A model generated the notes under the pieces. The model was not told where the DNA came from. It worked only from the letters and a program-made list of their open reading frames with translations, and did not search any database. A DNA stretch of 57,684 bases, counting the filler, from Dugesia japonica (Eukaryota): assembly GCA_001938525.1 (NCBI GenBank). It is 6 parts of 6 records of this genome, joined end to end, with 100 filler letters (N's around TTAATTAATTAA, not from the genome) between each part and the next. Parts side by side here need not be neighbours in the genome. Positions count along the whole stretch, not along the records: positions 9,405 to 18,029 come from MQRL01167217.1; 5 more parts are not named here. One strand, 5' to 3'. The stretch's first letter is position 1. Each line of letters opens with the position of its first letter. Positions 2,223 through 56,964 of this stretch are shown in pieces. A program made the position numbers and the translations under genes.

Positions 2223-3044
2223 TATAATTGTAAAATAAATAATTTAATAATTGTAAAATAAATCAATTTAAATAATTTTTGTAATATTAATGCGCGTATA
2301 TTTAACATACATGATATCTTTATTTTATTTATCGTTTTCATAGTCCAAAAACCTAACAATGAAACCAAAAAGAAAAAATTAATTATTTAATTAATGAATG
2401 TAAATTAAAAAATTTATTGGACTTCAAATTCATAATAATTTTGAATTATTAAATAATATTTTAATATGTTAAGTGAAAAATTATCTGTTGAAGAACACAT
2501 TAAAACTATTATCTATTTAATTAACTTAATTATTAATTTAAAGATAAAATTTATCATAATAGTTTATTTAGGATTTGTAAATATGAATTCATAATAAGCA
2601 TTAATGCAATTTTTACATCAATTGTAAAAGGTCTAGACGACTTTCTCTTATGAATAGATTTTGTAGACATTCTTATCAGGTACTCAAAGAAATAATTCAT
2701 ATTAATGAAAAACGATTTAAAGACATTTCGTAATGAAAGCATGTTAAATTTATTTGTTAGTAATGTCAATATATGGCTTGTATATATATATATATCACCT
2801 AAAATTGCATATAGAAATTGTATACATTTAAGATATTCAATTTCATCCCATTAACCAAATATGAGTTTTGTTCTAATATTTTCTGTTTAATAAATAATCT
2901 GTTTGTTTATCTGATTCAATTCTTAAATGGAGTTAATTAAATAAGTTAAATAAGTAATCATTTTTCTAATTTTGTAATGTAAATTAAAATAGTATAGACG
3001 GCGCAGTTAGATGATATTATATCAATAATAAAATTAATTAATTT

Positions 3045-3700
3045 TCTAAGTTGGAGTATAGAAGAATGGAAAACGATAATGTGGTCAGATGAATCACCAT
3101 ATGTGTTACGGTTTCAGCACTCAAAACGCGTTTGGAGACTTCAAAATGAGCGTTATTCCAAATCATGCAAGACAAAAACCATCAAACAAAATAAAAGAAT
3201 AATGGCCTGGGGATGCTTTGCCTCACATAGTGTTGGAAGCCTTTGTAGGTTTAAAAAACAATGGACAAAGAACAATATCGTCAAATATTAATTAGAAAAA
3301 TGGTATCTTCAGCAAAGAAATTGTTCTCAGACGGTAATTACATTTTCCAGCATTACAACAATCCGAAATACAAAGCAAAAATTATTCAAAAATATTTGGA
3401 GATGAAACATTATTAAAACTCAAAGTCCAAATTTAAATCCCATTGAAAACGTATGGATTTTTCTCGATAAACAAGTGGCAGACAGAAATTCAAAATGAAA
3501 AGGAATTATTACAAATTTTAGAAGTTGTCTGAAAAACATTGCAGCAATTTATCTCACTAACTTAGTTGAAAGCATGCCACGCAGATGCCAAGCTGTTAGT
3601 AACAATGACGGAATGCCAACCAAATATCAAAATTTATTTTTAATAAATTTTTTTAAAGTTTTATTTTAAAAGTGATCAGATTTTTTTGCGTATTGTATAT
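3045..3700 (+). mobile_element. Tc1-like (DDE) transposase fragment, 3' half
   Basis: WSDES, IMAWGCF, IFQHYNNPKY, SPNLNPIENVW and SMPRRCQAV...GMPTKY motifs across frameshifts. Confidence 0.85.
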
Positions 3701-9304: not shown

Positions 9305-9404
9305 NNNNNNNNNNNNNNNNNNNNNNNNNNNNNNNNNNNNNNNNNNNNTTAATTAATTAANNNNNNNNNNNNNNNNNNNNNNNNNNNNNNNNNNNNNNNN
9401 NNNN
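9305..9404. other. Artificial assembly spacer N44-TTAATTAATTAA-N44 (also at 18030-18129, 27528-27627, 36516-36615, 49202-49301)
   Basis: The same 100-nt block with stops in all six frames occurs five times. Confidence 0.95.
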
Positions 9405-9627
9405 ACAAAAAAATTCCCCGAATCAATCTGTCTATTTAATTTACCTCACAATGATAAAATGAATATTAATAATGTTGAAGTTACACTAAAAATAAAAAAA
9501 GATCCAAATTTTAAAGCAATTATTTACTGGTGTATTCTTGAAGAAAAACATGTTGAAATGAAACTAGCTAACAGTAAAATTGTTATGGTAAAAAATGTAA
9601 AAGAAATTAATATTAAATGTTAAAGAA

Positions 9628-10911
9628 ATGTCTTCTAAAAATTTTTATGTGAAACTTGTGGAAAAATAATCTTAAAGAAAAATAAATCAAGACATTTAGA
9701 TTTGTGTAATAATAAAGTAAAACAAACTGGTAGCAATCTTCAAAATTCAAAAATAACATCTGCATTATTAAAACCTTTTACATGGGAAAAATATGAAGGT
9801 GAAAGACATTTATTTGGTCATAATTATACTGGTCCAGGAACTAGATTAGATATTAGATTGGATTCCGAAGGAAACCCAAATCCTGGTGAAGAACCAATTA
9901 ATAAAGTTGATGAAGCAGCTTTAAAACATGATTTAGCTTATAATTCAGAAGATATTAGAGATCGACATATTGCAGATGTAAATTCAATACATGATCTTAA
10001 TAATATTGACAATCCAACATTAACAGAAAAATTTCAAAGAGCTCTTGTAAAATTAGCTATGAAAGGTAAAATCATGATTGGTGTAACAAAATCAAAAATA
10101 ATGGTTGAAGATTCTGATGATGAAATTAATCCAAATGAAATTAAAAGTAAAGAACTTCATAAAGATTTTAGAAAGCCAAAACATTTTAGAAAAGTAATTG
10201 TACATGAAAAAGATGACATTTGCTCAGCAGATTTAATATTTCAAGGAATTGAACGAAAAGGTAAAAATGTAATATTAACAGTTATAGATCTTTAAGATTT
10301 GCATTCATAGAACTTTCTAAAAGTAAAACTAGTTTAGCAACAACAAAAGCATTTGAAAAAATTTTAACTAAAATTTTAGATCTCCAAATAAATTGTGGGT
10401 TGATAAAGGTAAAGAATTTTACAATAAACATTTTAAATCTTTCTATGAAAATAATAACATTGACATGTATTCAACTGAAAATCAAGGTAAAGCAGTTATT
10501 ATTGAAAGATTTAACAGAACATTTAAAAACAAGCTCTTTAAACATTTTACTGCCGTTGGGAATCAAAATATTAATTTAGAGTTATTAGAAAAAATTGTAA
10601 ATGATTATAATAACAGTGTACATTCAACAATTAATGTTACACCACAAAATGCTTCAGATAATCCTGAAAGTATTAAACCTAATATAGTAAGTAACCCACA
10701 ACAGAAATTAAAATTTAATATTGGAGATCGTGTACGAATTACCAAAAAAGGAAAAACATTTCCTAAAGGTTATACTTTTAAATGGTCAAAAAGAATTTAT
10801 ATTATCACTAAAATTTTTCGTAATCCATTTACATTTGAAATCTCAAATCTTAACGGCAACAAAATATTGGGAAGATTTTATTCTAATGAGTTACAGAAAT
10901 CAGTTTTATAA
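9628..10911 (+). pseudogene. C2HC zinc finger + parvovirus-VP1-like PLA2 domain + Polinton rve integrase
   Basis: CETCGKIILKKNKSRHLDLC; HNYTGPGT and NKVDEAALKHDLAY (PLA2 Ca loop and HDxxY); ELHK...DDICSADL...LTVID; WVDKGKEF; IIERFNRTFK; YNNSVHSTI; GRFYSNELQK. Disrupted near 9640 and 10295. Confidence 0.88.
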
Positions 10912-11131
10912 AGGGTGTTAAGATTAAAATAAAAAAACTCAAAATGGATGTTATTAAAGAATTAAAGAAAGTTAATAAAGAAATAAAAGAATTAAAAAAA
11001 AATATTTGCATGTGACGAAGATAATGAATATGAATTTTATCAAAATGAATTATTACAATTAAAAGATTTACAGAATGAATTATTACCTATAAAAAAATAT
11101 TTTTAAAATAATATCCCATTAAAACATTAAA

Positions 11132-11901
11132 ATGAAATATTTTATAATTAAAAAATGGCATTTATCTGGAATAAAAACAACAAAGTTTAATAATAAAGTA
11201 TTACCTAATAATTTTAGACTTTTAATGATTGGATCTTCAGGTTGTGGTAAAAATGTTTTATTAATGAAAATGTTATTAACTCCAGAATTTTTAGATTACA
11301 ATGTTTTAATTTTTTATTCAACAACAATTAATCAATTTGAAATTCAACTTTTATATTTAGGTTCTGAAAATGGTTTAACTAAAGAAGAAATTATTTTAAT
11401 GTTTGAAAAACAAAATATAATTCCAAAAACATGTACAACTCCTTATGAAGTTGTAAAATATTATTTAGATAAAAAATTAGTTATTAAAAAACCAAGATCT
11501 ATTATTGTAACATTAAGTAATAAACCTAATGAAATTATTTCTTGTGATAAACTTTCTAAGGAAAAGAAAAACTTAATAATATTTGATGATGTAGTTTATG
11601 AAAAGAATCAACAAGTTCAAAAAGTTATTTCACAAGAGGTCGACATTCAAATTGTAATGTAATTTATATTTCCCAAACATATTATCAATTAGATAAAAAC
11701 TCTATCAGAAATAATTCAAATTGTTATATATTTTTTAAGTTAAATAAAACTGATAGAGATAATGTTTATCATGAATTATTTTCAAATGTTTTTAATAATA
11801 AGTTAGATTATGATTATGAGGTAAATCTTCACTGGAAAACCAAATATAATTATTTTTACATAAATAAAGAAACTGATGAAATTTTAGATGATTTATTTTA
11901 A
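11132..11901 (+). pseudogene. A32/FtsK-like genome-packaging ATPase (one frameshift near 11625)
   Basis: Walker A GSSGCGK, Walker B LIIFDD, then in the shifted frame FTRGRHSNCNVIYISQTYY and SIRNNSN, ending TAA at 11899-11901. Confidence 0.9.
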
Positions 11902-12101
11902 TATTCTATTTCAATTTTAGTTTCTTTATTAATTTCTATTTTAGTTTCTTCTTCATAACTTCCATCATCTTCATCTTCAGAACTTTCTATTATAGTTTCT
12001 ATTTTAATTTCAATTAAATTTGTTTTAAAATGAAAATAAAACTTTTCAACTGAATATAAATCTTTAATGAGATTATTTAAATTTTCTAAAATACTATCCA
12101 T
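11898..12101 (-). CDS. Small acidic hypothetical protein of the Polinton
   Basis: 67-aa ORF with TAAAATG start context; its stop overlaps the ATPase stop (TTAA). Confidence 0.5.
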   Translation of the reverse strand: MDSILENLNNLIKDLYSVEKFYFHFKTNLIEIKIETIIESSEDEDDGSYEEETKIEINKETKIEIEY

Positions 12102-12117
12102 TTTATAATCTTATTAT

Positions 12118-12705
12118 TTAAGTAATTCCTAATTTATTTTTCATTTCACTATTAACTTTATTTTGATTTTCTAATAACACTTTTAAATTTTCTTCTTTAG
12201 CTTTTTTATTTCCAGAAATTAATTCGTGAACTTCATTAACCATATTTTTACTAACTAATAATTCATCATCAGTTAAAATTTCATCATTAACAGCTTTCTG
12301 TTGAAATAGAAATAATTTATTTTTAACAGCTTCAAGTTTCTTAATTAATTTTTCATATTTTTCTTTTCTAGATTTTACTAATGAAGAATTTAATGTACCA
12401 ATTACAGGCAACACAGAAATTGCCCCAGTCAAAATTGGTATACCAATTGTGGCAAGGGGTATTCCTATTGGTGCAATTAAAATTACTCCACCAATTCCAA
12501 TTCCTGCACTAACAAATATTTGTGCATATTTTATTGATGAATCTATTCTTGTCCATCTTCTTTCTATTTTCTTATAATGTTTTATTTTATCTTTAATATA
12601 ATAAAAATCATTTTCGAAATCTTTAATTCTTGATAATGCAAGTTTATTTTTTAAATCTATTATTGTGTAATCATTTAAATCAGGATATAACTTTTAACTC
12701 TCCAT
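12118..12705 (-). pseudogene. Polinton membrane-active protein (GasderminX-like) with N-terminal LYPDL
   Basis: MES*KLYPDL...HYKKIERRW...two Gly/Ile-rich hydrophobic helices...KKYEK...KAVNDEILTDDE. ATG 12705 is in frame with the listed ORF; premature TAA at codon 4. Confidence 0.65.
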
Positions 12706-12711
12706 TTTTTA

Positions 12712-14833
12712 TTATATAAAATTTAAAGTTATTTCTTTTAAGTGAACATCTTGTGGTAAAATTATTACAATATAGTTTATATTTGTATCTTTATTAATTT
12801 CAGTACTTGTTCTGTTAATTTTAACATTATAATCTCTAGGTGAAAAATATTGATATTATATTGCAATTTGATTAATTCTAATGACATAATCAATTATATT
12901 AATTTCACAACTACCTTCTATATTTATACTAACTTTTTTTATTAATGTTTGTCCATAAATGTATTTCTTTTATTATTTTACCTTTTCTTTTAAAATCTAA
13001 ATTGTTAACATATTTATCCATAATAGAAAATTGACGAGAATTAATTGAAAATATTGTTTATTATTGGGTGGATTAACATAAGGTAAATAATTATCAATTA
13101 ATTCTTTTATGTTTTTAAGTATTACATCAGAACTGGTATTTTTAAAAGTTTTAAATAAAACATTAATTCTATCAACAAAAATTTTATGTAGTTTTGGTTT
13201 TATTGTTTCAAATTCTTTAGTTAATTCTTCACAAATTTTAAATCTATACAATTTAATTATTAAATGATATAAATAAATTTCTTTTGGTAAAATTATTTCA
13301 ATATAATTTATATTTGTATCTTAATTAATTTCACTGCTTTCTCTGTAAATTTTAATACTATTATCTTTAGGTTTAACATATAAAAATGATACTGCAATTT
13401 GATTAATTTTAATGACATATGTAAATTTTTCAATCTCGCAATATCCATCAATATTTATATAAATTTTTTCATTAATGTTTTTTGTATGTAAAATAATTTT
13501 AAAAGGTTCTTCAAGATAAAAATAAGCGTAATTAATATTTAACTTAGTTTTTATTTTTCCTTTACTTTTAAAATCAAAATTCTTTACATGATCACTAATA
13601 TGAAAATATGGACGAGTTTGACGTTGTTCATAACAGATAATTGTTAATATTACATTAGCACCAGGTAAAAAATATTATATAAGCAATTATCAAACATTTC
13701 TCTTAAACCCTTAAAATTAAGGGTTTTAAATAAAACATTAAAACTGTCAATATGTTTTTTGTGAAGTTTTGGTTTTATTAATTCAAATTCTTTTTTTAAT
13801 TAATCACGAATTTCTAAACTATATAAATTAACACTTAATTCATTTATATAAATTTCTTTTGGGAAATTTATTTCAATATGGTTTATATTAATTTCACTGC
13901 TTTCTTTAAAATAGTTAATCTTTTCTTATTGATATGAAAATGTTTTTTTAATATGATTAATTTCAATACTATACGTAAAACTTTCATATAAAGTTGGTAA
14001 ACTACCTTTTATTTTTATACAAACTTTTTCATTTATTTTTGTTTGTAAATTAATATTAAAAGCTTCTTCACCTTTTATTTTAAAATCAAAATCATGAACA
14101 TATTTATCTATAATAGAATATTGAAAAAGATTGTTAACACGTTCTATTAAAAATATTGTTTTGTCACTAGGAATGAAAACAAAAGGTATTAAATTATCAA
14201 ATTATCTCTTTTAAACTGTTAAGTTTTAAATCTGATAATGTTTCTTTATAAGTGTTAAATAAAACATTAAATCTGTTGAGATGTATTTTATGAAGTTTTG
14301 ATTTTATTGGTTCAATTTGTTTAAGTACATTTGAGATTTTAAACTTAAAATCTATTATATCCGATTTAATATTATTAATGTAATATAAATATCCATAAAA
14401 AGTTAAGTTATCTAAATCTAAAGGTAACATGTTAATTTTTTTTATCTAACACATTAATTTCTTCTTTAATTTTCTTATTTGTATCCTCTTCATTTAATTT
14501 TTTTATTCGATAAAATAAATCACTTCTTTTATGTGGAAAAACTTCTGATTTTATTCTTTTGATTCCAGAAGTTAATTTTTCACATGTTACCTGAGTATTT
14601 TTATTGTTTGTTAAATTATAAATCTTTAATTCAAGTTGTTTAATATATTTTAAATTAACAGCATCATTTAAATCTTTAGGATCATCTTTTATTTATAAAT
14701 ATGTAATTGTGTCACCTGTTTCATTTACAAATTTATTTTCATTATCAGCATTTGAAATTCTAATTTTAGCATCAACATGTTTTACTAATTGTGAATTGTT
14801 TGCTGTGAATAAGCTTTCACCAAATTTATTCAT
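12712..14833 (-). pseudogene. Fibre/receptor-binding-like protein with three tandem C-terminal modules
   Basis: N-terminus MNKFG...FVNETGDTI...DPKDLNDAVNLKYI (fibre-shaft GDT..P...DA..KY motif), coiled region, then three homologous ~180-aa units. ATG overlaps the protease 3' end; final TAA at 12712-12714. Confidence 0.65.
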
Positions 14834-15269
14834 TTTCTATAATTAAATTATTATATAAACTTTTCATTTCTTTTATTATTTCTTTAATGGTTTTATATTG
14901 AAGTTTATATAAAAAATAAATACAAAGGATACCACAAATTTTAGTACCAAAATGTTGAACTTTAATTTTATTATATTTAGTAACAAACTTTTCTATTTTG
15001 TCTAAAGGTTTTAAACCAAAAGAGTCAAAATAAAAACCATTTGTGTAAGCTATCCAATGTGAGCCTTTTTGATTTGAATTTTGATAATTAAAAATAATAT
15101 TGGAATTATTATTATTTACAAGGGTTGTTTCAACCCATTTTAAAATTTCATTCTTCATATAAATTTCTAAAAGTAAATTTAAAAAGTCTACAATTGAATA
15201 TAAATCAAAATTTGTTGTAGTGTTAATTCAAAATGTTTTCAAGAAATTTAATAAAGTGTAAGATGCCAT
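14826..15269 (-). pseudogene. Adenain-like (adenovirus-type) cysteine protease
   Basis: GSHWIA, YFDSFG, KVQ...ICGILC (H-D-Q-C set). In-frame upstream ATG at 15269 with TTNFDL motif and one internal TGA. Confidence 0.88.
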
Positions 15270-15298
15270 TTTTTAAATGTAAAATGTAAAATATTAAC

Positions 15299-15317
15299 AC
15301 GCTTACTTCGTAAGCAT
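15299..15317 (-). terminator. Hairpin ATGCTTAC-GAA-GTAAGCGT 5 nt after the penton stop
   Basis: GC-rich 8-bp stem with one G.T pair and a GAA loop in an AT-rich spacer. Terminator function is inferred. Confidence 0.5.
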
Positions 15318-15322
15318 ATTTT

Positions 15323-15988
15323 TTATAATCGATATTTACGTAAATGAACTAAAATAGAAATTGTTTCTTGGTTAAAATCTATTCTGTTAAAATTTTCATC
15401 TACAATATTAAATCTTAATATTGAAATGTAATTTGTATTAATTTTAGAATAAATTGTTGTTGTTGGTCTTTCTATAATTTTAAATCCAAATGGAACTGTA
15501 TTTATTAGAAATGAATACAAAAGATTAATATTTTCAGTTTCACCATTTGCAGATTTTACATAATTACCTTTAATAATATTACAAGTTATATTTATCATGT
15601 TAATATGTGAAATGTCAATTTTATTTTCTGAATAATAATTTCCTGGTTGATAANNNNNNNNNNNNAAACCTAAAATTTTATGAAAGAAAGATTTATCATC
15701 AAAAGTTAATATGTTTTTTGTTTTCATGTAACATTTTGTTGTTGAAGTATCTGCTGAAATTTCTATTCCATATTTTTCTAATCTTGCTGAGATTTCTTTT
15801 ATTTCATAAGCACCTGATTCAATTTTATCTTTATTAAATTTATTGTTTAAATTTGTTATGTTAAAAATAATATTGTAAAATGTAAAACAAATTAATCCTA
15901 ATTCATATTCTGAATCTAATTCTATAGGAAATTTTAAATCTAATTTTAAATCTTGTTCTTTTCCAACTATTAAGAATTGATGTGACAT
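15323..15988 (-). CDS. Minor capsid (penton-like) protein
   Basis: 221 aa with Polinton minor-capsid-like motifs: PIELD.EYELGL, IFNIT..NNKF, GAYEI, ILG, INITCNIIKG, P.GFKIIERP, IVDEN...IDFN.ETI...HL. Confidence 0.8.
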   Translation of the reverse strand: MSHQFLIVGKEQDLKLDLKFPIELDSEYELGLICFTFYNIIFNITNLNNKFNKDKIESGAYEIKEISARLEKYGIEISADTSTTKCYMKTKNILTFDDKSFFHKILGXXXXXYQPGNYYSENKIDISHINMINITCNIIKGNYVKSANGETENINLLYSFLINTVPFGFKIIERPTTTIYSKINTNYISILRFNIVDENFNRIDFNQETISILVHLRKYRL

Positions 15989-16088
15989 TTTTTAAATGTA
16001 AAATATTGGTTCATGCATGAGCCATGTTTTTTGTTAAATGTTAAATGTTACATTTTAAATTTTACATTTTACAAAACCCGCCAAAAAC

Positions 16089-16107
16089 GCGATTACTTCG
16101 CAAGCGC
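16089..16107 (-). terminator. Hairpin GCGCTTGC-GAA-GTAATCGC immediately after the TAA at 16108-16110
   Basis: Same C(GAA)G loop as the 15299 hairpin. Terminator function is inferred. Confidence 0.5.
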
Positions 16108-16768
16108 TTATTTTTTAAAATATTTAACTTTATATTTATCATAAATCTTATTAGATAATAAACCCACCATTTTTAATTTTTTACAAACACTTTTAATTTC
16201 TTTATCAAAATTATCATGTCCTGATTTTGCTGCTGAAATTAATTATGTTAACTTTTCAAATAAATTTATTGGATTGATAGCATTTCCTTCTTTTTCTGTT
16301 TCGGTATCAGTATATTCTGATTTCTCAGTTTCTGTATATTCTGGTTTTGTTTCTACTTTTTTCTTTTTTTTAGGTTTTACATTAATATATACCCTTTTAA
16401 ATTTTCTCTTTAATTTATTACAATAATCACTATTACCAGGAATAGGACTAATAAATTTATTTAAATAAATCTCAACATCTTCAGGTGTTTCTCTTCCATC
16501 TATATTTCCTAAAATTAATCTAAATATTCCATCTGTGTATGGTATAACTTCTGCTTTAAATAAGAAATTTTTATTTCCTTCTTCTTCAAATAAATAAATT
16601 TTATTTTCCTTTACAGTTATTTCCATAAAACTTTTGATGGCACCAACTCCACTAATATTTAATGTAGAAAATTTAGGAATTATTGTTTGACTTAATTTTC
16701 CACTAGCATCAATATTATCAATTGAGTATTCAGGAATAAATGGATATACAATAAATGCATATTGATAT
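16108..16768 (-). pseudogene. Conserved Polinton hypothetical protein, 5'-truncated
   Basis: The ORF 16243-16626 frame extends to ~16768 and, past one TAA, to NPINLFEKLT*LISAAKSGHDNFDKEI..., which resembles the P..L...L.L...+.AG+...EI C-terminal motif recalled from Polintons. Confidence 0.55.
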
Positions 16769-16774
16769 GAGAAG

Positions 16775-17280
16775 AGTGAAAGATTTATATTTTAATCCAC
16801 AGTTGGTAAAAATCACTATTATGTCAAGCAGCGGAACTATTTTAATGGATGAAACTCTCTGTCCTAGAGAAAAAATTAGACATTTCGACTCACATATCAC
16901 AGGGTGTAATCAGGAAAAAATTTTATAATATAAAGATGCTTATCTCCTAATATTAAAAGCAAGGCAGCTTATTTATAAGAGGATATTAGTAGGCTATAAT
17001 TTTAGGAAAAATTTGATAAGTCTTCATATGGATCAGAGACATGTAATTGGTGTTAGAGATCTCGTGGAAGAAAAATGGAGACGACAATACACCCCAAATG
17101 TCAAGAAGCTTAAATTTCTTAATTTAATGGAAGCAGTATTTAAGCCATTAAGACACGAATTTGACATAAAAGATATTCTAAAAACAGCTAGAGAAACGAA
17201 ATATGAATCAACGGCTAAAAGAACGACATTGATCAAGATAACTTATAAACAAATATGTAATCAGCAGGAATGGATGGATT
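16775..17280 (+). pseudogene. REX4/ISG20-like DEDDh exonuclease domain, followed by an acidic low-complexity region to 18029
   Basis: PQLVKITIMSSSGTILMDETLCPREKIRHFDSHITG ... RQLIYKRILVGYNFRKNLISLHM..VIGVRDL ... ITYKQI..QEW follows the REX4 pattern L.RVS+V...G.V+YD..VKP...I.DY.T..SG / ILVGH...D...L...RDT / LY....W. Confidence 0.65.
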
Positions 17281-18130
17281 CCTTACAACCAAAGACAACT
17301 GATAACATGACATTAATCAAAGAAGATCAGAACACGATGCAGGAAATTGCAATTAGAGAAGTGCTTAAACCAATAAGTATTCGATGAATATTAGATTCTG
17401 AATCCGAAGATGACATGGATACAAAAGTCAAGCTGAATTCAGATAACGACACCAAGTCGGTCAAAGATGAGATAAAAGACGAATATAGCAGTGACGGATA
17501 TAGTCCTGAGTCAGATGACGAAGAAATAAGAAGACAATAGATGAAGAAGACAGACAGCTAGAAATCCAAGGCAAGAAGGACGAACAGTGGGTGGTTGAAC
17601 AGTGGAAGAAAGTCCCAATCCCCTACCATGAGGAAACTTGTGATTTAGATGAAGGAAAAATAAATAACAGTACTGAATACTGGTCTGAAGTGGGAGATGA
17701 ACAAATGGAAGGTATTATGGAACCCAAACGTGTAATATATCTCACTGAATCAGATAATAAAGACAAACAGTTGGAAGATCTTATGGTAGATCAAGTTTGA
17801 GAGGATTGTGTATATATGCCATATTATACAGACAATGAGAGCGATGATTCAATGGGACCAGAGCCGGATATATTTATAACCGAACCAGGGGTTATTTGTT
17901 TAGAAACATCAAATAAGACGAATAAGAAGAGTGGAGAATTCAGATTCCCAACACCACCAGAAACGGATATCTATTTAAAATATGGTAAAAAAAGAGTTCG
18001 TCTAACAAAAATAGGAGAAGATGGCAACANNNNNNNNNNNNNNNNNNNNNNNNNNNNNNNNNNNNNNNNNNNNTTAATTAATTAANNNNNNNNNNNNNNN
18101 NNNNNNNNNNNNNNNNNNNNNNNNNNNNNT

Positions 18131-18689: not shown

Positions 18690-20152
18690 TAGAAAATTAA
18701 AGCGATATCATTCCTAAAACCACTCAAAGAATTTTCACACCATATGGATTGTATTTTTACACCATCATCTTTTAATTCCATATTCAGCAACCTATTCAAA
18801 TTCATTACTGCAGTGTAATGATATTTTCCCCATCTTCAAGCAATAAAAGATTAATTTTACTACCTCATTCAACCTTACTTCATTGAATAATAGGATTAGG
18901 ATGTTTCATAATTACATCATCTTCATTATTACAATGACTAATAGGATTCCAAGAAAATACATTTATGGAAAGATCTGGATTATTTGTCTCAAATTTACGA
19001 ATATTAGCTAACTTCATCGGCATATTTGATTTGTTAAAAACATGTTCTCCAAATAATTTCTTATATTTTGAAGCTCGATACTTATGATATTTTCCAACTT
19101 CATCTAGTTTAAGTATAGCAAGAATGCTATAGATGAAACACATATTGTATTTGTTTTTAATATTAAGAACAACTGTTTTATTCACAAGATTTTCAGGTGT
19201 TGAGATATGATTACTTCCCGACAACCCGCTCATATCACTAAATTTAGTTATCTTAAAGTTTATTTCAGACATTCTTCTAAGAATTCAAATATTTCCTAGT
19301 TCAGACCATACTACAATCTTTTCATTTAATTGTTCTATACCTTCTTCGAAAAATTTGTCAGATAATGGGACAGCACTATTCAATAATTTACATGTCTTAA
19401 CTTCATAATCCCTAATAAACTTCACATGAATTCTCAACTGAATCTTAACATGTTTCATTTCATGAATTATCTTAAATAAACTCTGGATCAAATTAACAGG
19501 TAGAATTTTCTCAGTCATATTAAATTTCAAAACTTCAAGCTTCAATATTTGATGACACGTCGGTTTCAATTACAGCTTCATCAACAGAGCCACCTACTTG
19601 AATATTATACAATTAATCTCCATTTATTTCCTCATACTTATATTATCTCTTATATTATCTTATAAATTATCTCTTCATCGCTTATTTTATCAATAAAAAC
19701 CCGAGAATAACCATCAATAGTTGAATTATTAACTGAATCAATAGATCGACAACTGGAACAAGAGAAACCTTGAAATCACTAACTAGATCAACAGTTGGAT
19801 TAATAACTGTATCAACAGATAGATCAAGCACAGGATCAACAAATGGAGCTACAAAACCTTAGTCCTCATTAAGGCTTATATTTATTACCTCAGATTTTAA
19901 CCTTTTACAGAATGGAACATCTTTGTCATGTTTATTAAGTATTTTAAGAAATAATTCTTTCTTAGTTTCAATAAATTGTGATAAATGATGTGCATGGGTC
20001 CTATAAAATTCCTTGTATGTACCTAAATCTAATGTTTCACATGTAAAAGATATTTAGCATTTTGTTCCGTAATGAAAAACATCATAGTATTTCTCCATTT
20101 TCTCGTGAAAATCTTCATTATGTTTTTGACTAACCCAATAATTTGTGTACAT
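18690..20152 (-). pseudogene. N-terminal region of a Polinton-type protein-primed DNA polymerase B ORF (catalytic part absent)
   Basis: GSNHISTPENL..KTVVLNIKNKYNMCFIYSILA; MPMKLANIRKFETNNPDLSINVFSW; INLLLL; HYTAVMNLNRLL; WCEN(S)L.GF. Upstream part is rich in VDL motifs. Confidence 0.7.
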
Positions 20153-24429: not shown

Positions 24430-26530
24430 CTAAAATAAACAGAAAATATGATGTATAAATTACAAAAAGTAAATATAAAACTAAAGCCAATACAATGCAA
24501 ATGAGCGGAAGACAGGTATTATTTCTAGAGCATATAGTTTTCTCAAAAGCTGTACAGACAAATCCAGATAAAATAGAAGCAGTAAAAAATTTCCCAATAC
24601 CAAAAACAGTACAACAGCTCCAAATTTTTAACGGATTAGTTGGGTATTATCATCGATTCATAAAAGATTTTGCTAAAATATCTGCTTCACTAGTAAAGTT
24701 AACAAAAGATCTAAAAACAAAAGGAGAAAGCAGAAATGTGATGATTACTGAAAAATTCGATGAAAATTCATCTAAAATACAAAAACTATGGGGGAAACAA
24801 TCATTAAAAGGCTAGCGATACGTACAAGAGAAATTAAGAAAAGTGCTAATATTGAGATACCCAGATTTTGAAAAATCATTTATAATCATGACAGAGGTTA
24901 GGAGGTACGCAGTTGGAGCTGTTCTTGGACAGTAGGAAGAGAAAAACAAAGATCGCGTAATTGCATAGGTTAGTAAAATGTGAAAAGAAGCAGAAACTAG
25001 ATATTCAACAATAGAAATAGAGTGTTACGCAATAATATATGCGTTGAAACAATTTCGACCATTCATCTACGGAACAGTAGTTACTATACAAACAGACCAC
25101 AAACCACTAGAAAGCTTATGAAAAGACAAGGATACATCCAGCCGAATACTAAAATGGGGCATGAAAATCCAAGATATGAATATAAAAATAAAATACAAAC
25201 CTGGAAGAGCTACCAGAAATGCCGATGCACTATGAAGAATTCCTTACATAAAAAAAGTGGAAACGATAGAACTAATGGCTATAATAACTGAAGTTATAAA
25301 TGATAACACTTTCTCAGACGAGCAAAGAAAAGATAAAAACATCAAATCAATACGAAATAATCTCAACAAAAATACAAAATATAAAATATACAAGGATTTA
25401 ATTGTATACGATAATGTGGAAAAATCTTATGGGTTATACCTGATTCCTTAAAACAGATGTTACTTTTTCAATATCATGACGGTGCTCTTGGTGGACATTA
25501 AAACAGCATCTAGAATATTATAAAAATACTATTGCCAAAATTTACATGAGGCAAAAAACCATGGTGTAAAGCTTGTTCAATATGTGCAACTAGAAAAAAC
25601 ACTAGAACAAAAACAAAAGTACCACTTCACCTAATGCCGGTACCCAGTTCAGCAATAGAGATATGTGCTATGGACTTTTTAAGTAAATTACCAATTTCAA
25701 TAAAAATTAATAAGCATATTTGGGTATTTAGTGATTACTTTACAAATTTGGGCCGAAGCATTTCTCCTCGCTATCAGACAGAAGTAGAAATTTCTTAAGC
25801 GAAACAGTTAAAAGAGTCAACGAAATGTTCAAAATTGAAAAAATAAATATTTCAGCATACCCCCCACAGACAAGTGGTCTTGTGGAAAGATTTAACAATA
25901 CATTATGTAACAGATAATCAGTATTTGTAAATAAAAATCAAAATAATTGGGATTTGTTTATTAAACCAGCATTATTTTCCCACAACATGACAGAAAATGA
26001 AGCAACTGGATATTCACCATTCTATTAAATGTACCTGATAGAAAGTCATAATCCGATAGATGTCACATTCGAACCTATTATATCACAATGTTATGTNTAT
26101 TAAATGTACCTGATAGAAAATCATAATCCGATAGATGTCACATTCGAACCTATTATATCACAATGTTATGTTACAAAAATTCATGGAATACTACAAGGAG
26201 TGTATAAACAAGCTGGATTGAGAGTAGATTTCAAACAAGAATAGTATAAAGATTACTATACAGAAATGCAAAACCACATCAATTTAAAGTTGAAGATAAT
26301 GTGTTAATAAAGTCTCCAAATTCAAAAAATGGTCTAACAAACAAAATAGCTAGACCATTTATAGAACACTTCGAAGTAGTAAAAGTAACAGACACGAACT
26401 TACAAATAATAAAAAATAAAAATGATGATCCTATTGTAGTCGCAGTTTATATATGTAAATTAACAGAAACAGAACCAATAACTCAAAAACCACATAAATA
26501 TAATCTCACACAATCACAAAATTCATTGCC
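24430..26530 (+). mobile_element. Ty3/gypsy pol fragment (RT C-terminus, RNase H, integrase)
   Basis: GLVGYYHRFIKDFAKI; YAVGAVLG; TDHKPL; YKPGR...NADAL; HDG..GGH/C..C zinc finger; PQTSGLVERFN; TGYSPFY. Confidence 0.9.
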
Positions 26531-26534
26531 AATC

Positions 26535-26865
26535 ATGTCAGTAATATTATTATCAATCATGACAAGTTGTTCAGCGGACTTTACGTATCTATCACCTAAA
26601 AAAGGATCTTGGTCTATGGTAGAAATAGATATATATTCACGTCAATTTACATTCGAAATCACTTCACAATAAACGTTTTATGGACCTACTTACTTATTCG
26701 TAGTAGTAGGAAGAAAAATCAGCTATACAGCAAGATTTAGCGAGTTTACTGGGTTAGAACCGAATACAAAATATTACACCACTATCAACTGATTTGGAGG
26801 TTTATTGAGTAGCTCGCGCTATTGAAACTATCACTCTGACAACATTTCCAGAAAATCCAAAATAG
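26535..26865 (+). pseudogene. Extra ORF after integrase: signal peptide + fibronectin type III-like domain
   Basis: MSVILLSIMTSCSA|DF; FTGLEPNTKYYTTI; after a frameshift ITLTTFPENP. Confidence 0.55.
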
Positions 26866-27527: not shown

Positions 27528-27699
27528 NNNNNNNNNNNNNNNNNNNNNNNNNNNNNNNNNNNNNNNNNNNNTTAATTAATTAANNNNNNNNNNNNNNNNN
27601 NNNNNNNNNNNNNNNNNNNNNNNNNNNTGGAAAAATACATTTTTCGATACACGTTCTTGAGGTAATGTATAGGCAGTTTTTAATTCTCCATCCGATGAT

Positions 27700-29082: not shown

Positions 29083-32000
29083 TTTTTTAACAAGACAATA
29101 GGGTGACTACCCCATAAATACGTCATAGTAGGTATAGACGAGTCCATAACCTTATCTTTCTTTCTTTTTGCAAATAACTTCGTCAAACAGCCAAGTTTTA
29201 ATAAACTTAGCTCATACATCAGGAGAGAGGAGTGCAATCAATAGAATTTATATGATTTAAAAAGATACGATGACTGGTTTTGATGACCTTTTCTATAAGG
29301 ACCTGGGAAATGGGCTTTATTTCCTTATTGTTTAGGCCAATAGCTTTGAGGACTCTTTGATTGGCTGGATCCCAAAATCCGCGGGTACCAAGGACTATTG
29401 CATCGAGTGGTACTTCTTTGTGATACTTGGCCCCAAGATCCTTTCGAACTTGCTCATATTTGTTTTTGTTGTCTATTCTAACTTTCTTGAAGCCTTCTAA
29501 AGAATCGTATGGTACTTTGACGTTTGGAATGTGAATTTTCTTATTCCTATTGCTAGTTATAACCAGATCTGGTCTCTACTTAGTTTCTAGGCCTTGAGAT
29601 GAGCAATCGTACTGAACGTCAAAGTCCTATTTCTTGAATATTGAAGCCGTCTTTTCCAGGATTCTGTTGTGTTTGTTGTGCTTCTAGTTTTTCATGACCG
29701 GATAGTGAATAAAGATGTGCGTTTGTGTCTCAACATGAATACCACACTGTATGCAGTGAGTAGGCGTATTCATTTTGAGCCTATAGGGGTTGTAATTGGT
29801 TCGGAGAAGGTTGTTATTTGCTCTGGCCATGAATAAGAAATCCATCTCTGTGATATTTATTTTTTTCATAAATTTACTACTATAGTCAGAAACAGCAATA
29901 GCATTTGCGATGAGGCCTTGAGTAGATAGTTTGCACCAATGCTGAATGTAAGTAAAACCAATCTTCTTGTGGAGGGCCTTGCAAATCTTTGATTTGTATT
30001 CATTATTGAATATAATACTTATTTGATGATTATATTCAGCCAAGTCAGTTAGACGTAAGGAGATTAGGTTGTCATCCCTATGAAAAGTGATTTTTAGTTT
30101 ATAAGCTTCTTTGAGCCTGTTGATGGCCAATCTGACTCTAGTCCACCAGGAGGCGACTACATCAGCTTTGTCCTCGTGCAGGAAATTGTTGTTGACCCAA
30201 TCCAAACATTTGTCTAAAGAGAAGTTAGCCTCTTCGAAAGCGATGTTTACCAGTAAGTTTCAGTTCATTAGTGGCAAATTTTCTGAAGACTTCAGTGTCG
30301 GAATTCAGTGTACGTAAAGCATGTACAATGATATGAATATAATTTGAATATAATACTCATATATAGGTAGTATCAGACCAAGTCCACCAAGATTGGTTGG
30401 TACTTACAGGGAAGCATTGTTTGGACTGGTATTGGGAGCCTCAATGATTTCTTTAAGCATTTTCCTGATAAATTGATCATAGCCAGGTTGACCACTAGAG
30501 CCATCAACAGGTTTATAATGAGGTTTGTTGAGCTTCATACAGAGAATATTTCTATTTCTCATTAAGTAGATGAGCCTCGAATGAATGAACATTTTTTATG
30601 TTGGATTTTGAGAGTTGGGTGGAGATCCGAATCAGCAATCTTGGTGTAATCCTCTATGGCCTTCGAGATAATTTTCTCTAGGTTGCACTTTTTCTTTTCA
30701 CCAAAAGGTACACCTAAGTAATTGTAGAGCTTCTCCTAGTCAATGATAAAGAGTTTATCTCCATAAATTTGAATTTCGTTAGAGATGAATTGCCTGTTAG
30801 TAGTGAAGTAGCCACATTTGCTAGGTCTGAATCTAAGTAGAAAAATCTCAGAGAGAATATCTATATGATTTATCATGGCAGCACTATTCCGTTGGTTATT
30901 TGTCATAATTACGAGATCATCGGCATAAGCAAGGATGACTGTATTAAATCCAGAGTTTATAAAAGGGAATTTATTTGCAGTATCCTTGATCATGAAATCA
31001 ATAGTAAGGCTGAAGAGAGTCATAGACATTGAACATTCTTGCTTTACACCTTTACAAATTGCGATATCGCCGGTGTAAATATCAAGACAGCTGTAACTAG
31101 TATATACATCAGTATAGAGATCTCTGAGAAGATGAATAGTATCAAAGTAGGAGCCCATTTTCCTCCGAGTATTCCATTTTAATTCATGAGTTAGACTTCC
31201 AAAAGCATCAGCAAGATCCAACCAATGCAGATTAAGATTTGTCTTTTCTCTGTCAGCTTTTCCCTGATTATTTGGATAGTAGCTTTGTGTTGACAGTAGC
31301 CATCGGAGACATTGACAGCATTTTGAGTAACTGAGAGTAAGCATTCGTTCTTTATCCTCTGAAGGAGACGGAAGTTCATTATAATTGCAAAGATTCTCTG
31401 GGAAGTGTCAAGAACAGCAATTGGCCTCCGTGAAGAAACAATGTAAGATTCATTTTATTTTCCAGGTTTGAGAATAAGAGTGGTGTAAAATCTTTTCCAT
31501 TGGTTTAGGATATCCTTTTGATTAAGAGTTTTGTTAAAGAGTTCTTTAAGTAATTGATGACTATTGTCCAATTTGACCCGGTCTGAGTAGCTGATTTTGG
31601 CAAGACCTAGAGAAGATTTGTTTTTCTTGATTTGATTTCTTGAATAGTGATTTCGTCGTTGGTGTGGAAGTCTTCAGAAGCATGCAGTTTATAATTTTTT
31701 TAGAAGGTTGATGTCGAAATCTTTAGGTTTATTCTAAAAAATTCTTTGATGATGTCTTCCTTGGTAAGACATGAATCAGGAGAGGAAGAGCCAATAATTT
31801 CTTTGAAAACCGAAGATGGATTCCTAAGATATCTCGTTTGTGGTTTGTATTTGGATTCCATTATGTTGTTTCTAATATGGTGATAAGACTGTTTAGGATT
31901 TCTGACCTTGAATTTCTTAGGTGATATTTTGGCTAGTTCTTGCTGAATTTCAAGTAGAGACTCAGTTTTATGAATAGAACCATTTTGTAGTTTTTTAGTG

Positions 32001-32290
32001 ATTTGATAAATGTTTTCTTTTTTATCTTCTTTTACAGATTTGCTGTTGATTGATTTAATATGTTTGAAGATCATTTCTTTGATGTTTTTTAGATATTCTA
32101 TAACATTTGGGACAGAAATGCAATTGTTGTTAAGAAGACAGTTTGTATATGAAAAAATGAATATTTCAGTCATTATCATTTCTCGGCCGAGGATGGCTAA
32201 CCGATGTTTTAGAGTTGATAAAAATTTCTTCTTTAGGATAGTAGTAGTTGGAACAAATTCTGTTTAGTTTTGACTGGAGTTCAATTTTCT
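29083..32290 (-). mobile_element. Non-LTR retrotransposon with restriction-like endonuclease (R2/NeSL/Utopia-type clades), degenerate
   Basis: RT motifs RPIAV, LDLADAFGSL.H, GVKQ.C..S, AYADDL, Y.YLG, GGLG; zinc knuckle CIQC..VETQTH and HNRI; RLE RPDLV...VKVPYD...NKYE...GTRGFW; short A tail at ~29083-29089. Confidence 0.9.
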
Positions 32291-33115: not shown

Positions 33116-36100
33116 GTAAAATATTATCAATTATTCCGTAAAATATTTCAAAAAAAATATGTCAGATATTTAAATCTATGAATGATTCTTCAATCCTCCC
33201 TCTTTAAATTTTTTTTTAATCTTTTCAACATTTCTTTCAATCACCTTGCCTTCTGAACTCTTCAGCAGGTATCATCTTTCATGAATCTTTTTTATCACCT
33301 CGTGTGGACCTCTAAATCTTTCTTTGTCTTTTGATCTGTTTTCTACCTTGATTAGCACATCGTCTCCAGCTTGAAAATGTATCTTTATTGGTGTTAACTA
33401 TCCGAATTCTTCATTTTTTTCTCCATTATGGAACCATCTTTCTCTATGTATTTTCTTACAGAATATCACTTCTACTGGACTTATTCCTAAAGTCTTCTGC
33501 CTTTTTACATTTAGTGTATATTCAATTTCTGGTATTATCTCTGCCCAATTTTTATTCTTTTTATCTTTTAATGTTTCATTGATGTAATCTCTGATCGTTT
33601 TGAATTGCCTTTCTACTATCCCGTTCGTATTATGATGATATGGACTTGAAAAGCAAATTCATTGAATCTGTCATCTCTTTGAAGACTTTCGATTCGAAGA
33701 TCTTCCCGCAATCTACATGTATCTCTTTTGGAGCACCAAATTTCAGTATCCATTTATCCATAATCATTTTCTTTATTGATTCCTCATCTTGTATAACTAG
33801 GGCTGTTAGGTATATGTATCTGCTAAATTTATCTATTATAGCACATATATATCTTTTTCTTCCTACGGGTTCTTGGAATGTCATACAGACATCAATATAA
33901 ATACTCTCAATGGTTCATTAGCTTTTAATTTTATAGTTTTCTCCTTTTTTCTAACTCTAGTTACTTTGTTCATTTGGTACGCTGTACATTCTTTTATTAC
34001 TTTGACACATTTTCTCATATTCATTTTTTAAATTATTTATAACTTTTTCTGTGCCTGCGTGCACCAATAAATTATTCATTTCTTTTACCAATTGAATTTT
34101 ACTTTCTGGCGGGATCCATATTTTGCCTTCTTTTGTTTTTATAATATCTTCTATTAATCGAAACCTTTTGCATGTTTCATTTTTATATCATTTTTTATCT
34201 GTTTAATTTTTTCTACGTTACTTTGCCATTTATACGTATCTGAGACTGATATACCATTAATTGTTCTTGTCTTTATTTTTCTTTCCTTTGGATTCTCATG
34301 ATATGTTAAGAATTGTACACACGTTCCACAATTCATTCTCAACAGCATATCTGCATTCGTGTGTTTCGAACCTTGTCTAAATTCCAATATCATATCTAGG
34401 CTACTAAGAATAATCATCCAAGTCTGAAATTGCGGAGTAATTGGCTTATTTGTCTTTTTTATAATCGCCTTTTGATCTGTTCTCACCAAAAATCTTTTTC
34501 CATACAAATAATGTTTAAAATGGTTACAAAAATAGTAAATGGCCAATAATTCCTTTCTTGTTATACAATATCCTTTTTCATGAGCTGACATTGTATGTGA
34601 CCCATATGCAATGACTTGTTGTAAACCTTTTTAATCTATTTGCGATAAAACTGCTCCAATTGCATCGAAACTCGAATCTGTATCCAGTACAAACATCTTT
34701 TTGATATCCGGAAAGCTCAATCAGTGTTTTTGTTAATGCCTCTTTCATATCATTAAAAGCTTTATCACAATTTTCAGACCACATAAGTTTTTTACTATAA
34801 CTTCCACATACCTCTTCCAAGCTTCTAGCTTTCTTGGAGTAATTATTCTATCTTGACCTCTAAATGCATTGATTGTCTCCATGGTTTCGTATTTATTGGT
34901 TCTCCATTTGTGAGTATTTGATGTTCTGTAATTGTTGTTCTGCCAATATCCCAGTTGTCATCTTTATAAATATTTGATCCTTCATTGCAATAGTGGCCTA
35001 TACATACACAATCTTTTCCATTTTTTCAATTAAATTAACTTGACTACCATTCCTTCTTTTGTAAATATTCGTATTGTTCGAATAATCTCTTTTTCCCAAT
35101 TTTCCGAATACTTTTCTGGACTGTTCACTTTTATTCTGATAACTAAACTGTCTGTACATATTTGTGTAACTGGTCTCTGTGTGGTGATAACTAACTTTGG
35201 TATAGTCTCTTCTTAAGTGTCTTTCAGATCCACAAGCATTGCACTTTTTTTCTTTCTTGACAATCTCTGCTTACATGACCGATTTTGTTACAGGTCCAAC
35301 ACGAGATTTCTCGTCTTTAATTGTTTTTGTTCTGTTTTATTCCTTCATTTCGACTTTTATTGAAATTTGTTTGTTCTGGACTTCGGTGAACTGCACCTCT
35401 GTAGTTACGAACTACATTTATTTCTTCAGTTTTTACTTCGTCCTGTATCTCTTCCCACTCTTTTATTGCTTAAAATACATCTTCTAATTTTTCTATTTTT
35501 CCTGATTTGATTTTATGTTTAATCTGTCTACCATTGTAACTCATCATTATTGGCACTTTTGTTAAGTCCTCTTGTTTTCATTTATGAGTCATTAACTTTT
35601 CCACCAATCATTCAATCTTTTTCTTATAGATATTTATATGCTTTCTATTCCTTCGATATTTTAGAGCTTCCTCGATAACTTTCATCATTGTTGATGGCCT
35701 AAAGAAAGCTTTTCTGAATCTTTCTTCAAATTCCAATGATTCGTCTTCATTTTAATAGATTTCACGCTGTTCTTGATTTATGAAAGCAACTACAAACAAA
35801 CTCCTTTGGCATTTCTTAGTTCCGGTTATATCAAAATATTTCGTTGTCTTCAAAAGAAATTTTTCAAGATCATCGCCCAATTGGAAAATTCAATGGTTCA
35901 TGGCTTCTTTTAGCAAATCCAATGATGCGTTGGTCGCCATATTAGTTAAATTCAAATTATCATAAGTCTCCATAAATTTATATTTATTATTACAAGTGTT
36001 TTTGATTAAAAAAAAATAATAATGAAGAATAATTCATAGTATTTAAACTAATAATCTGAGAATTTTTTCAATAAAATATTTTAAAAATATTGATTTTTTT

Positions 36101-55328: not shown

Positions 55329-56633
55329 ATGTCAGATATTGGTCCTTATAGATTTTATAATAATTCACCAACTTTTCGCCGACCTCAAACATTGCTAAAA
55401 AGTTCTAATCAAATTCGTATAAATACCAATGAATCAAATAATCATAATCTTACTCGTAAACCGTCCTTTAAACAGAAATTATTTTCAATATTTAAAAATT
55501 CAAAATTTCCTCAACCGAACTCTACTAATGAATCATATATTGCAGAAGACAATAAAGCCATCACAAATTTNNNNNNNNNNNNNNNNNNNNNNNNNNNNNN
55601 NNTATGTCTTAATTCTAAACGTAACTCAAATAAATTAAAACACGCTGACACATCAGATAACCATATAAAACAATTAGATGATACCGATTTAACTCTTATT
55701 GATAAATTCAATATACATCCTTTAAATGGTCAAATAATTCGTTATATCACCGATTTACAATGCTCACCAATTAAATTACCAACGAGTTGGATTAATAAAA
55801 TGGGTTCTCATTTGACAAACAGTGTAGTAATTCCATTTATATCGATCGTACCGGGTTTACTCGGAATTGAAAACCATGGAAACACTTGCTATGTTAATGT
55901 TATCATACAGTGCTTGTCGCATATTGATAATGTAGCGGAATATTTTTCCACTAAAGATTATTTGAAACATGTTAAAACTGACAATCACGCATCGCCGACA
56001 ACGATATCGACTGAATCCGCTAGTGGTTTCGATGTGATGGTCGGATTCTCATATTTACTGCAATCACTTTGGCAGTCAACTTATCAGGGTAAAATCTCAA
56101 TGAAATTCTGTCAACTGTTAACTCTGCACAAGAGTGAATTCAGTATCGATTCTCAGCAAGATGCTCACGAGTTACTGTTGTTTATGCTCAATTTACTGCA
56201 CGACAATCTACTAGAGAAGATCCCGTGCGATATTAATCGGAATTTATCAGCGAATTCACTGGTGAATGAAACCGACAAGTTATTCGATGAAACATCTTTT
56301 ATTTACGAGAGATTCCGAGGCTGGCTGTCGAATGAGATCGTTTGTCCGGAATGTAATTATACGAGGAAAACACTGGACCAGATTCTGTCATTGAATTTGC
56401 AAATACCAAAACAGATTAATTATGATGATATTGTGGAGAATAATCACCATTTGGAATTGTTTTACATGGTTGTGATAAACCCGAATCAGATTCCAGAGAA
56501 ACATGCTTTCGAAATTAACAGCTCTACGACAATAGGATTTATCAGAGAGGTCATTGCTGCTCGGCTGTTTTGTAATAAATATGATGTTATCATTATCGAG
56601 CTTGTTAGTGGGGGTTTCGGGAAATTGTTTTCG
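55329..56633 (+). CDS. Ubiquitin-specific protease (USP31/USP43-like), coding exon
   Basis: Cys box GIENHGNTCYVNVIIQCLS, QQDAHELL, CPEC; the start of a Ubl-like insert. Probable splice donor TCG|GTTAGT at 56634, after which GC content collapses. His box not in the window. Confidence 0.85.
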
Positions 56634-56964
56634 GTTAGTTTCTTGTTTTTTTTGTTTTACGATTTTTTTAAAAATTCATTTGAAATTAATATTAAATTTT
56701 AAAAAGATTAAATAATTTATTAAAATTTTAAAAAAATCGTTTTTTAAAAATTTTCTATTTGTTTTAAAAAAATTTAAAAATTAAATAAAATTTATTAAAA
56801 ATTTTAAAAAATTCAGTTTGTATTTTAATAAAAATTCATTTTAAATTAATATTAAATTTTAAAAATATTAAATAATTTATTAAAATTTAAAAAAATCATT
56901 TTTTATTTACATTTTTTTAAAAAATTATTAAAATTTGAAAAGAAATATTATTTTATAATTTATT

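Follow-up and report, generated by a model that had tools for sequence, protein, structure and literature searches.

Inside a decayed Polinton fragment of the Dugesia japonica genome lies a long broken gene in which one module is repeated three times. This raises the question of whether the gene encoded an attachment protein that displayed three heads at once or a store of alternative heads from which recombination selected one. The window is the whole stretch of DNA that was analysed, 57,684 nucleotides of assembly GCA_001938525.1 including filler. A first-pass annotation of it left two readings of this gene, namely a multi-specific fibre and a cassette array in which recombination between conserved anchors swaps the terminal head. 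The gene is probably the dead remnant of a Polinton spike or fibre gene, encoding a single polypeptide with three stacked jelly-roll heads that arose by tandem duplication.

The Polinton fragment and its broken genes

The pseudogene stretch (9405-18029, from MQRL01167217.1) is bounded by gaps at 9305-9404 and 18030-18129. Its features are as follows.

9639..10908, plus strand: PLA2-like domain, then DDE integrase; two frame changes
11132..11898, plus strand: A32-type packaging ATPase (Pfam Pox_A32 E 0.002, below cut-off); frame change near 11630
12118..12702, minus strand: LYPDL gene, the downstream neighbour, a SLATT-like two-helix membrane protein; one early stop
12712..13248, minus strand: unit 3 of the broken gene, helical linker (~13240-13080) and terminal beta domain (~13060-12715); 3' end fixed only to within a few codons
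13249..13823, minus strand: unit 2, helical linker (~13800-13670) and jelly-roll domain (~13653-13243) with a 15-codon in-frame insert
13824..14346, minus strand: unit 1, helical linker (~14340-14190) and beta domain (~14165-13805), the last strand of which extends a few codons beyond the repeat boundary used
14347..14833, minus strand: N-terminal part of about 160 codons, with an MNKFG start, a GDTI..DPKDLNDAVNLKY neck-like motif and then a probably helical stretch
14829..15268, minus strand: adenovirus-type cysteine protease, the upstream neighbour (Pfam Peptidase_C5 E 0.026, below cut-off); one early stop
15323..15988, minus strand: minor capsid protein (penton), an ESM Atlas lead; 12-base N gap; no Pfam match

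The PLA2-like domain matches Pfam Phospholip_A2_4 above the cut-off (E 3.5e-8). The integrase (10372-10908) has a weak match to an IS481-type DDE model (E 2e-5, far below cut-off) in the expected setting. The LYPDL gene matches NCBIfam SLATT_1 (E 0.003, below cut-off) and, more weakly, Avd (E 0.051). The protease gene has visible HW, YFDSFG and CG motifs, which we take to be those of adenovirus-type proteases. The penton lead, at 0.94, is a Sputnik minor capsid V18/19 cluster in which 52% of members carry PF21507; 30 unnamed clusters rank higher, and recognition is below the mark. An integrase, a packaging ATPase, a protease, a penton and a PLA2-like gene make up the gene set of animal Polintons (adintoviruses) in the available part of PMC8502044. 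Because the weak matches together form this set, the host element is identified as a Polinton/Maverick of adintovirus-like type. The Polinton context put forward by the first-pass annotation therefore holds, with all neighbours but the PLA2-like gene matching below curated cut-offs. Neither a major capsid protein nor a protein-primed polymerase B is seen in the frames of 9405-18029, where the contig ends at gaps, and this interval contains no long inverted repeat, its left end being a gap. Because no major capsid gene, polymerase gene or terminal repeat is seen, the Polinton stretch is a fragment. Rfam gives no match in 9405-18029.

The broken gene comprises about 706 codons at 14833-12712 on the minus strand, downstream of the penton and protease genes and on the same strand as both. 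Joining of the short open frames into one gene of about 700 amino acids between the protease (14829-15268) and the LYPDL gene (12118-12702), as had been proposed, is thus upheld. Five in-frame stops, all TAA, interrupt it at 14695, 13928, 13802, 13323 and 12858, and five frame changes occur near 14435, 14200, 13675, 13058 and 12940. Three of these frame changes coincide with 6-8-base runs of A or T, where the assembly may be in error; homopolymer assembly error does not account for the five stops. Breaks are about 2.5 times denser in the pseudogene (10 in 2.1 kb) than in its neighbours (about 7 in 4.0 kb; p 0.036), a rough comparison in which the neighbour breaks were counted by eye. Because the neighbour genes are broken too, the whole element is dead.

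Other features of the element can be listed beside these. A CxxC stretch, the PLA2-like domain and the apparent start of the integrase share one 218-codon open frame at 9639-10292 (plus strand), and PLA2 and integrase may be fused. An A+T-rich motif ending in an A run and ATG precedes the ATPase, protease and penton genes (11136-11160, plus; 15263-15297 and 15983-16007, minus). The three sites are 80-88% alike, and the common motif is possibly a late promoter or a start-context signal. The lysine of a Walker A motif is usually followed by T or S. In the ATPase this motif (11190-11220, plus) reads GSSGCGKN, without T or S after the lysine, probably as a result of decay. The SLATT-like LYPDL gene and the PLA2-like gene are two candidate membrane-active genes in one element. 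Upstream of the penton gene, an unbroken 182-codon frame (16246-16791, minus) encodes a basic and then an acidic tail and has no family match; the GC-rich word CCCGCC lies at 16077, between this frame and the penton gene.

As a whole, the window is eukaryotic DNA of very high A+T content, with numerous assembly gaps and retroelement remains. The gaps at 9305-9404, 18030-18129, 27528-27627, 36516-36615 and 49202-49301 have the same layout (44 N, a 12-base spacer, 44 N), the spacer being TTAATTAATTAA at 9305 and 18030. Because these five gaps are artificial joins, adjacency across them is unreliable. Two fragments at 18883-19569 (minus), beyond an assembly gap, presumably resemble the N-terminal region of a Polinton polymerase; they have no family match, and their G+C content is higher than in the element studied here. 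Inspection by eye finds remains of Tc1/mariner-like transposases, gypsy-like LTR elements and a non-LTR retroelement with a restriction-like endonuclease (991-1638, 2998-3288, 24459-26669, 29222-32263, 33401-35270 and 39711-43040). A host ubiquitin C-terminal hydrolase exon (Pfam UCH E 2e-24) is located at 55329-56699 (plus) and is followed by an A+T-rich repeat with a period of about 400 bases at 56662-57684.

Three tandem units that diverged in a working gene

The three tandem units first read by inspection are recovered on the minus strand by self-blastn and by shuffle-tested alignments alike. Self-blastn gives 68% identity, with E 8e-80 at an offset of one unit and 8e-42 at an offset of two. 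Local alignment of the unit pairs gives scores of 155, 232 and 257, against maxima of 50, 48 and 55 in 200 dinucleotide shuffles each, so the units align significantly. Their protein identity is 45-49% (76/158, 71/158 and 79/160 aligned codons). Scanned with a three-unit profile, the window shows no fourth unit in any of its six frames. Upstream of unit 1 the DNA scores 29-32, the shuffle means being 33-34, and such shuffle-like scores rule out an older fourth unit there. The array contains exactly three units.

Each unit consists of a helical linker of about 55 residues and a beta domain of about 110-135 residues, and the chain terminates in a beta domain. The KLHK..FNVLF/INVLF and S(S/T)EIN..IN motifs are present as originally given. 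The DKYV motif, attributed to every unit, is found in units 1 and 3 (in unit 3 as DKYVNNLDFKRKG), and unit 2 reads DHVKNFDFKSKG. This region was also thought to precede the beta part; instead it lies within the beta domain, the structural matches beginning at residue 8 of P0001, a single-frame stretch that combines the beta part of unit 2 with the helical part of unit 3. The in-frame insert of unit 2 (~13555-13510, minus) resembles the adjacent strand and is probably a small internal duplication; model confidence is low there.

Between units, 28-32% of aligned bases differ. When dead DNA is simulated at the observed divergence, the three units carry 16.7-18.7 stops on average, compared with the four observed. 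Four stops or fewer occur in none of 150 runs in each of two matching settings and in one of 900 runs over all six. Second codon positions are the least diverged (21-28% vs 31-37%), and eight gap positions outside the breaks keep the frame, compared with four frame changes (p 0.019, assuming that one in three is expected). Simple codon counting gives a dN/dS of 0.91-1.03. Codon models disagree on the overall value (0.49 under MGK, 0.16 under GY), and the lower values depend on models that allow for the 6-9% G+C of third codon positions; a dN/dS of 1.0 is rejected under MG (2 x 5.8 log units). Because stops are few, second positions are conserved, gaps keep the frame and the codon models agree with this, the triplication is old and was shaped, and its units diverged, while the gene still functioned.

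Divergence is uneven within the units. The helices have a dN/dS of 0.16 (interval reaching 0.35) and the beta domains one of 0.7 (0.45-1.1; p 0.003), and the same contrast is obtained under three other alignments (p 0.008-0.03). The heads, that is, the beta domains, changed faster than the helical spacers. The beta-domain interval spans 1, and three sequences cannot show diversifying selection.

Predicted fold of the heads and the N-terminal part

The P0001 model, folded with a three-row alignment, has a mean pLDDT of 66, with 77-93 over residues 61-140, and consists of ten strands followed by helices. Residues 146-199, the linker of unit 3, form three predicted helices (pLDDT 49-69). In a structural comparison with 48,161 solved chains, residues 8-144 match jelly-roll domains, and 12 chains reach Z 8; further comparisons agree. 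The best match is 9mui_A (Z 9.6, rmsd 2.9 A, 116 residues aligned), and the second is 9jsf_A (Z 9.4). A turret entry of STIV, 4ind_A, follows at Z 8.6 (rmsd 3.9, 123 aligned), a pectate lyase CBM also scores 8.6, and many carbohydrate-binding modules fall at 7.2-8.6. For unit 1 the model is poor, with a mean pLDDT of 53, and none of the chains attains Z 8. The best rows (Z 7.6-6.3) are rich in TNF/C1q-type trimeric jelly rolls; 4ind_A and APRIL score 7.4 each and the PRD1 P5 spike 6.4. The STIV entry ranks third for both models, at 6-15% identity, and the structural rows also include APC10/DOC, IFT25 and the furin P domain.

The two models point to different jelly-roll families, TNF/C1q-like for unit 1 and carbohydrate-binding-module-like for unit 2, and they are not independent since they have alignment rows in common. 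Z values of 7-10 only modestly exceed the level of unrelated beta-sandwiches, and a common fold does not establish function. Foldseek against viral models gives four rows at E up to 0.001, all uninformative with a TM-score of at most 0.33. The proposal of beta-sandwich or knob heads survives as a predicted jelly-roll sandwich (Z 9.6 for unit 2, a weaker model for unit 1), with no kinship to the adenovirus knob seen. This knob does not appear among the 50 structural rows listed, an absence that excludes nothing. These models give good support to a jelly-roll beta-sandwich, but not to any one subfamily or ligand.

The N-terminal part contains the shaft motif GDTI..DPKDLNDAVNLKYI reported earlier. 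The pattern P-x4-DA[VAT][NT]-x2-Y, chosen post hoc, occurs once in the six frames of the window. Motifs resembling the DAVN neck occur in phage fibres. DAVN itself is listed as a beta-to-alpha connector of trimeric adhesin fibres in the available text of PMC7688925. Pfam (at E up to 0.1), PHROGs and NCBIfam contain no family that matches the N-terminal part. No Pfam match to a triple beta-spiral shaft or a penton-binding tail is found in this stretch, the sequence of which is decayed and far from known families. Atlas leads for the shaft are weak (best 0.84; a Preplasmiviricota-rich cluster at 0.80). A three-copy complex prediction of an 86-residue shaft stretch, made with no alignment, scores 0.27 against a mark of 0.32, and a heptad scan finds amphipathic helices with no distinctive coiled-coil signal beyond. 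Judged from its sequence, the N-terminal part is a candidate capsid-anchoring tail and shaft.

Searches for relatives are uniformly negative. No match to P0001 at E up to 0.001 is found by phmmer among 1.84 billion representatives. Word-seeded searches for longer proteins confirm none of 496 candidates for the N-terminal part and none of 4665 for the three-unit profile, and the same is true of sets of 289 and 39 pattern matches in bacterial and archaeal genomes. In phage records P0001 has no match, and the N-terminal part has 18 chance matches at E of at least 1. The pseudogene stretches find nothing below E 0.03 in Pfam, PHROGs and NCBIfam, and nothing significant among the sequences of solved structures (best E 0.09, to a coronavirus spike N-terminal domain, then 0.92 and 0.44). 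No second genomic copy is present in the window or in the protein representatives, bacterial and archaeal genomes and phage records searched. Because no sequence relative of any part is found, the fibre label rests on a short motif, the gene position and the fold. The orphan state of the heads says little, because the lineage as a whole seems poorly covered: for the SLATT-like LYPDL neighbour, too, none of 508 candidates is related.

Head switching, rival readings and known systems

Head switching by recombination would leave spare modules set apart, anchors that stay alike at the DNA level, and mosaic copies, and the KLHK and EIN anchors had been named as its breakpoints. Same-residue codon pairs differ in 8 of 44 cases at the KLHK anchor, a frequency like that of the beta halves (9/51 and 16/98); at the EIN anchor silent differences are lower (4/41), such codon pairs not being independent. 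The longest exact words common to the units are 19, 16 and 19 nt. The anchors are conserved as protein, not as DNA. Conversion tracts are absent at polymorphic sites (p 0.42, 0.08 and 0.66), and the same test over all sites gives p 0.03, 0.48 and 0.27. Six triplet tests for mosaicism are borderline (p 0.011, 0.041, 0.057, 0.071, 0.19 and 0.43, uncorrected), and none survives correction. In the first half of the domain unit 3 is closer to unit 1 (0.19 vs 0.27), in the second to unit 2 (0.21 vs 0.48); unit 3 may have taken part in an earlier exchange, as tandem repeats commonly do.

No adenine-directed bias exists between the units: A differs at 22-26% of sites, and C and G at 36-63%. A diversity-generating retroelement is rejected, the units being 28-32% diverged with no adenine excess in any direction and the Avd match of the neighbour standing at E 0.051. 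Among the 25 longest of 139 inverted repeats none bounds a unit, and Pfam, PHROGs and NCBIfam reveal no recombinase or reverse transcriptase family in the element frames scanned.

The junction between units 2 and 3 is one open frame, and the junction between units 1 and 2 aligns to it without gaps. The TAA at 13802 directly follows the last strand of unit 1; the other four stops are clearly inside domains. The chance that one of five evenly placed stops falls so near a junction is 0.07-0.22, depending on the margin. No ATG marks the start of unit 2, and its first in-frame Met (~13697) is within the helical part. The stop at 13802 could be genuine.

If it is genuine, unit 1 would be the head of a one-head fibre, and units 2 and 3 would either make up a two-domain product of their own or extend the chain by read-through, giving short and long forms. 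The position right after the last strand favours this reading, which is nevertheless improbable in view of the missing ATG, the gap-free alignment to an open junction and four further TAA stops within domains. The same stop has also been part of the case for cassettes, in which alternative heads are swapped into the expressed or terminal position at conserved anchors to change tropism. Modular units in one orientation, fast-evolving beta domains and weak mosaic hints (the lowest triplet p of 0.011, uncorrected, and the mid-domain shift in the affinity of unit 3) would fit such swapping. It is very unlikely, however, given the open unit 2/3 junction, anchors conserved at the protein level, no long identical tracts, no unit-bounding inverted repeats, no adenine bias and no recombinase or reverse transcriptase family. 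A specific form of it has an equally slight probability: the stop after unit 1 would be real, unit 1 would be expressed with units 2 and 3 as spares, and template switching at 15-19 nt words would have left the weak mosaic of unit 3. Were this true, it would amount to tropism switching in an integrating animal DNA virus. The least probable reading, to which we give hardly any weight, is triplication in already dead DNA followed by neutral decay. It agrees with a simple dN/dS near 1 and with the denser breaks relative to the neighbours (p 0.036), but four stops are far too few for 28-32% divergence, so that simulation largely refutes it, and conserved second positions and the predominance of frame-keeping gaps also speak against it.

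A more serious rival accepts one polypeptide with three jelly rolls and denies that it was a receptor-binding fibre; it might have been a capsid decoration, a turret-like vertex protein or a binder of host factors outside the virion. Jelly rolls are common and serve many roles, as the APC10/DOC, IFT25 and furin P domain rows illustrate, no fibre family matches the N-terminal part, and the STIV turret entry is within the top three for both models. Such a role is nonetheless rather unlikely, because the DAVN-type neck near the N-terminus, the C-terminal heads and the faster change of the beta domains relative to the spacers all suit an exposed attachment protein. Of the interpretation first offered, the multi-head fibre thus stands as the likeliest reading, on the Polinton context, the N-terminal motif and the beta-sandwich heads, and the cassette half finds no support in the tests possible on a single copy.

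For the three-headed fibre we infer the virion location, the trimeric state, the binding of a ligand or receptor and the mechanism of duplication. In the living virus two tandem duplications, probably by unequal crossing-over, would have produced the three units. Because unequal crossing-over suffices, the array is accounted for without switching machinery. The N-terminal tail and neck probably docked on the penton, as gene position and the neck motif suggest, and three heads in series, each a short helical spacer with a jelly-roll domain, would have been displayed at once. Several heads could have provided avidity or several ligand specificities, and their divergence may have given different ligands. 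Purifying selection would have kept the spacers, and the beta domains would have drifted or diversified at a faster pace, gaining or losing whole codons in loops. After integration the gene would have decayed along with the rest of the element.

On cell attachment by animal Polintons, a candidate attachment protein with a repeated orphan jelly-roll head provides a workable lead. Spacers that stayed conserved next to heads that changed fast are fossil evidence of an ancestor selected as a particle that met host surfaces. The find matters less in that fibres with repeated heads are known from related viruses, that the one copy is dead, and that little supports tropism switching. A literature search over titles, abstract beginnings and passages, with few subscription papers, found neither a gene for an attachment protein with repeated heads nor head switching in any animal Polinton. 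In the available part of PMC8502044, figure legends label 'Fiber' and 'Lectin' genes and a supplementary map labels one 'Fiber', with no repeated head described there. The adintoviruses in that text have an integrase, a packaging ATPase, a protease, a penton and a PLA2-like gene like the Dugesia element, whereas no major capsid protein or polymerase gene is seen in the Dugesia contig.

Tandem heads are known from other viruses, as far as the available parts of the respective papers describe them. The 703-residue fibre of porcine adenovirus 4 (NADC-1) consists of a tail, a short shaft and a head followed by two tandem carbohydrate-binding domains (PMC3562239). Like the Dugesia gene, it has three C-terminal globular modules in one chain of similar length in a related virus lineage. 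However, its tandem domains are described as host-derived galectins placed after an adenovirus knob, whereas the Dugesia gene has three homologous orphan units, each with a helical spacer, and no beta-spiral family match. Fibres of protist Polinton-like viruses carry arrays of up to seven laminin G3 domains, interpreted as raising affinity (PMC12220804). They likewise repeat beta-sandwich binding modules in a Polinton-related virus. As presented in that text they differ in that their hosts are protists, their domains are recognised by Pfam and a Peptidase_S74 chaperone is often present, neither such domains nor such a chaperone being matched in the Dugesia gene. The turret protein C381 of STIV, presumably the 377-residue chain of 4ind, consists of three jelly rolls, sits on the penton of a double-jelly-roll virus and binds host pili (PMC10551542). 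It too has three jelly rolls in series, but it belongs to an archaeal virus and is pentameric, and the text at hand mentions no N-terminal shaft or helical spacers. The Zamilon virophage proteins Zav_19 and Zav_20, together with Zav_1, are related fibres with different beta-sandwich heads and proposed different ligands, and Zav_19 has a three-helix bundle before its head (bioRxiv 2023.01.23.525297). According to the same partial source they are separate genes with a common N-terminal domain, whereas a single Dugesia gene repeats the head. Further, the particles of Gezel-14T contain a fibre-like protein with repeats (bioRxiv 2022.07.28.501842), and oomycete Polintons encode a tail-fibre-like protein (bioRxiv 2023.08.22.554363), again from partial texts. 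Tandem heads as such are no novelty, with examples in porcine adenovirus 4, in STIV and among protist Polinton-like viruses, and the Dugesia gene adds an orphan jelly-roll head in an animal Polinton.
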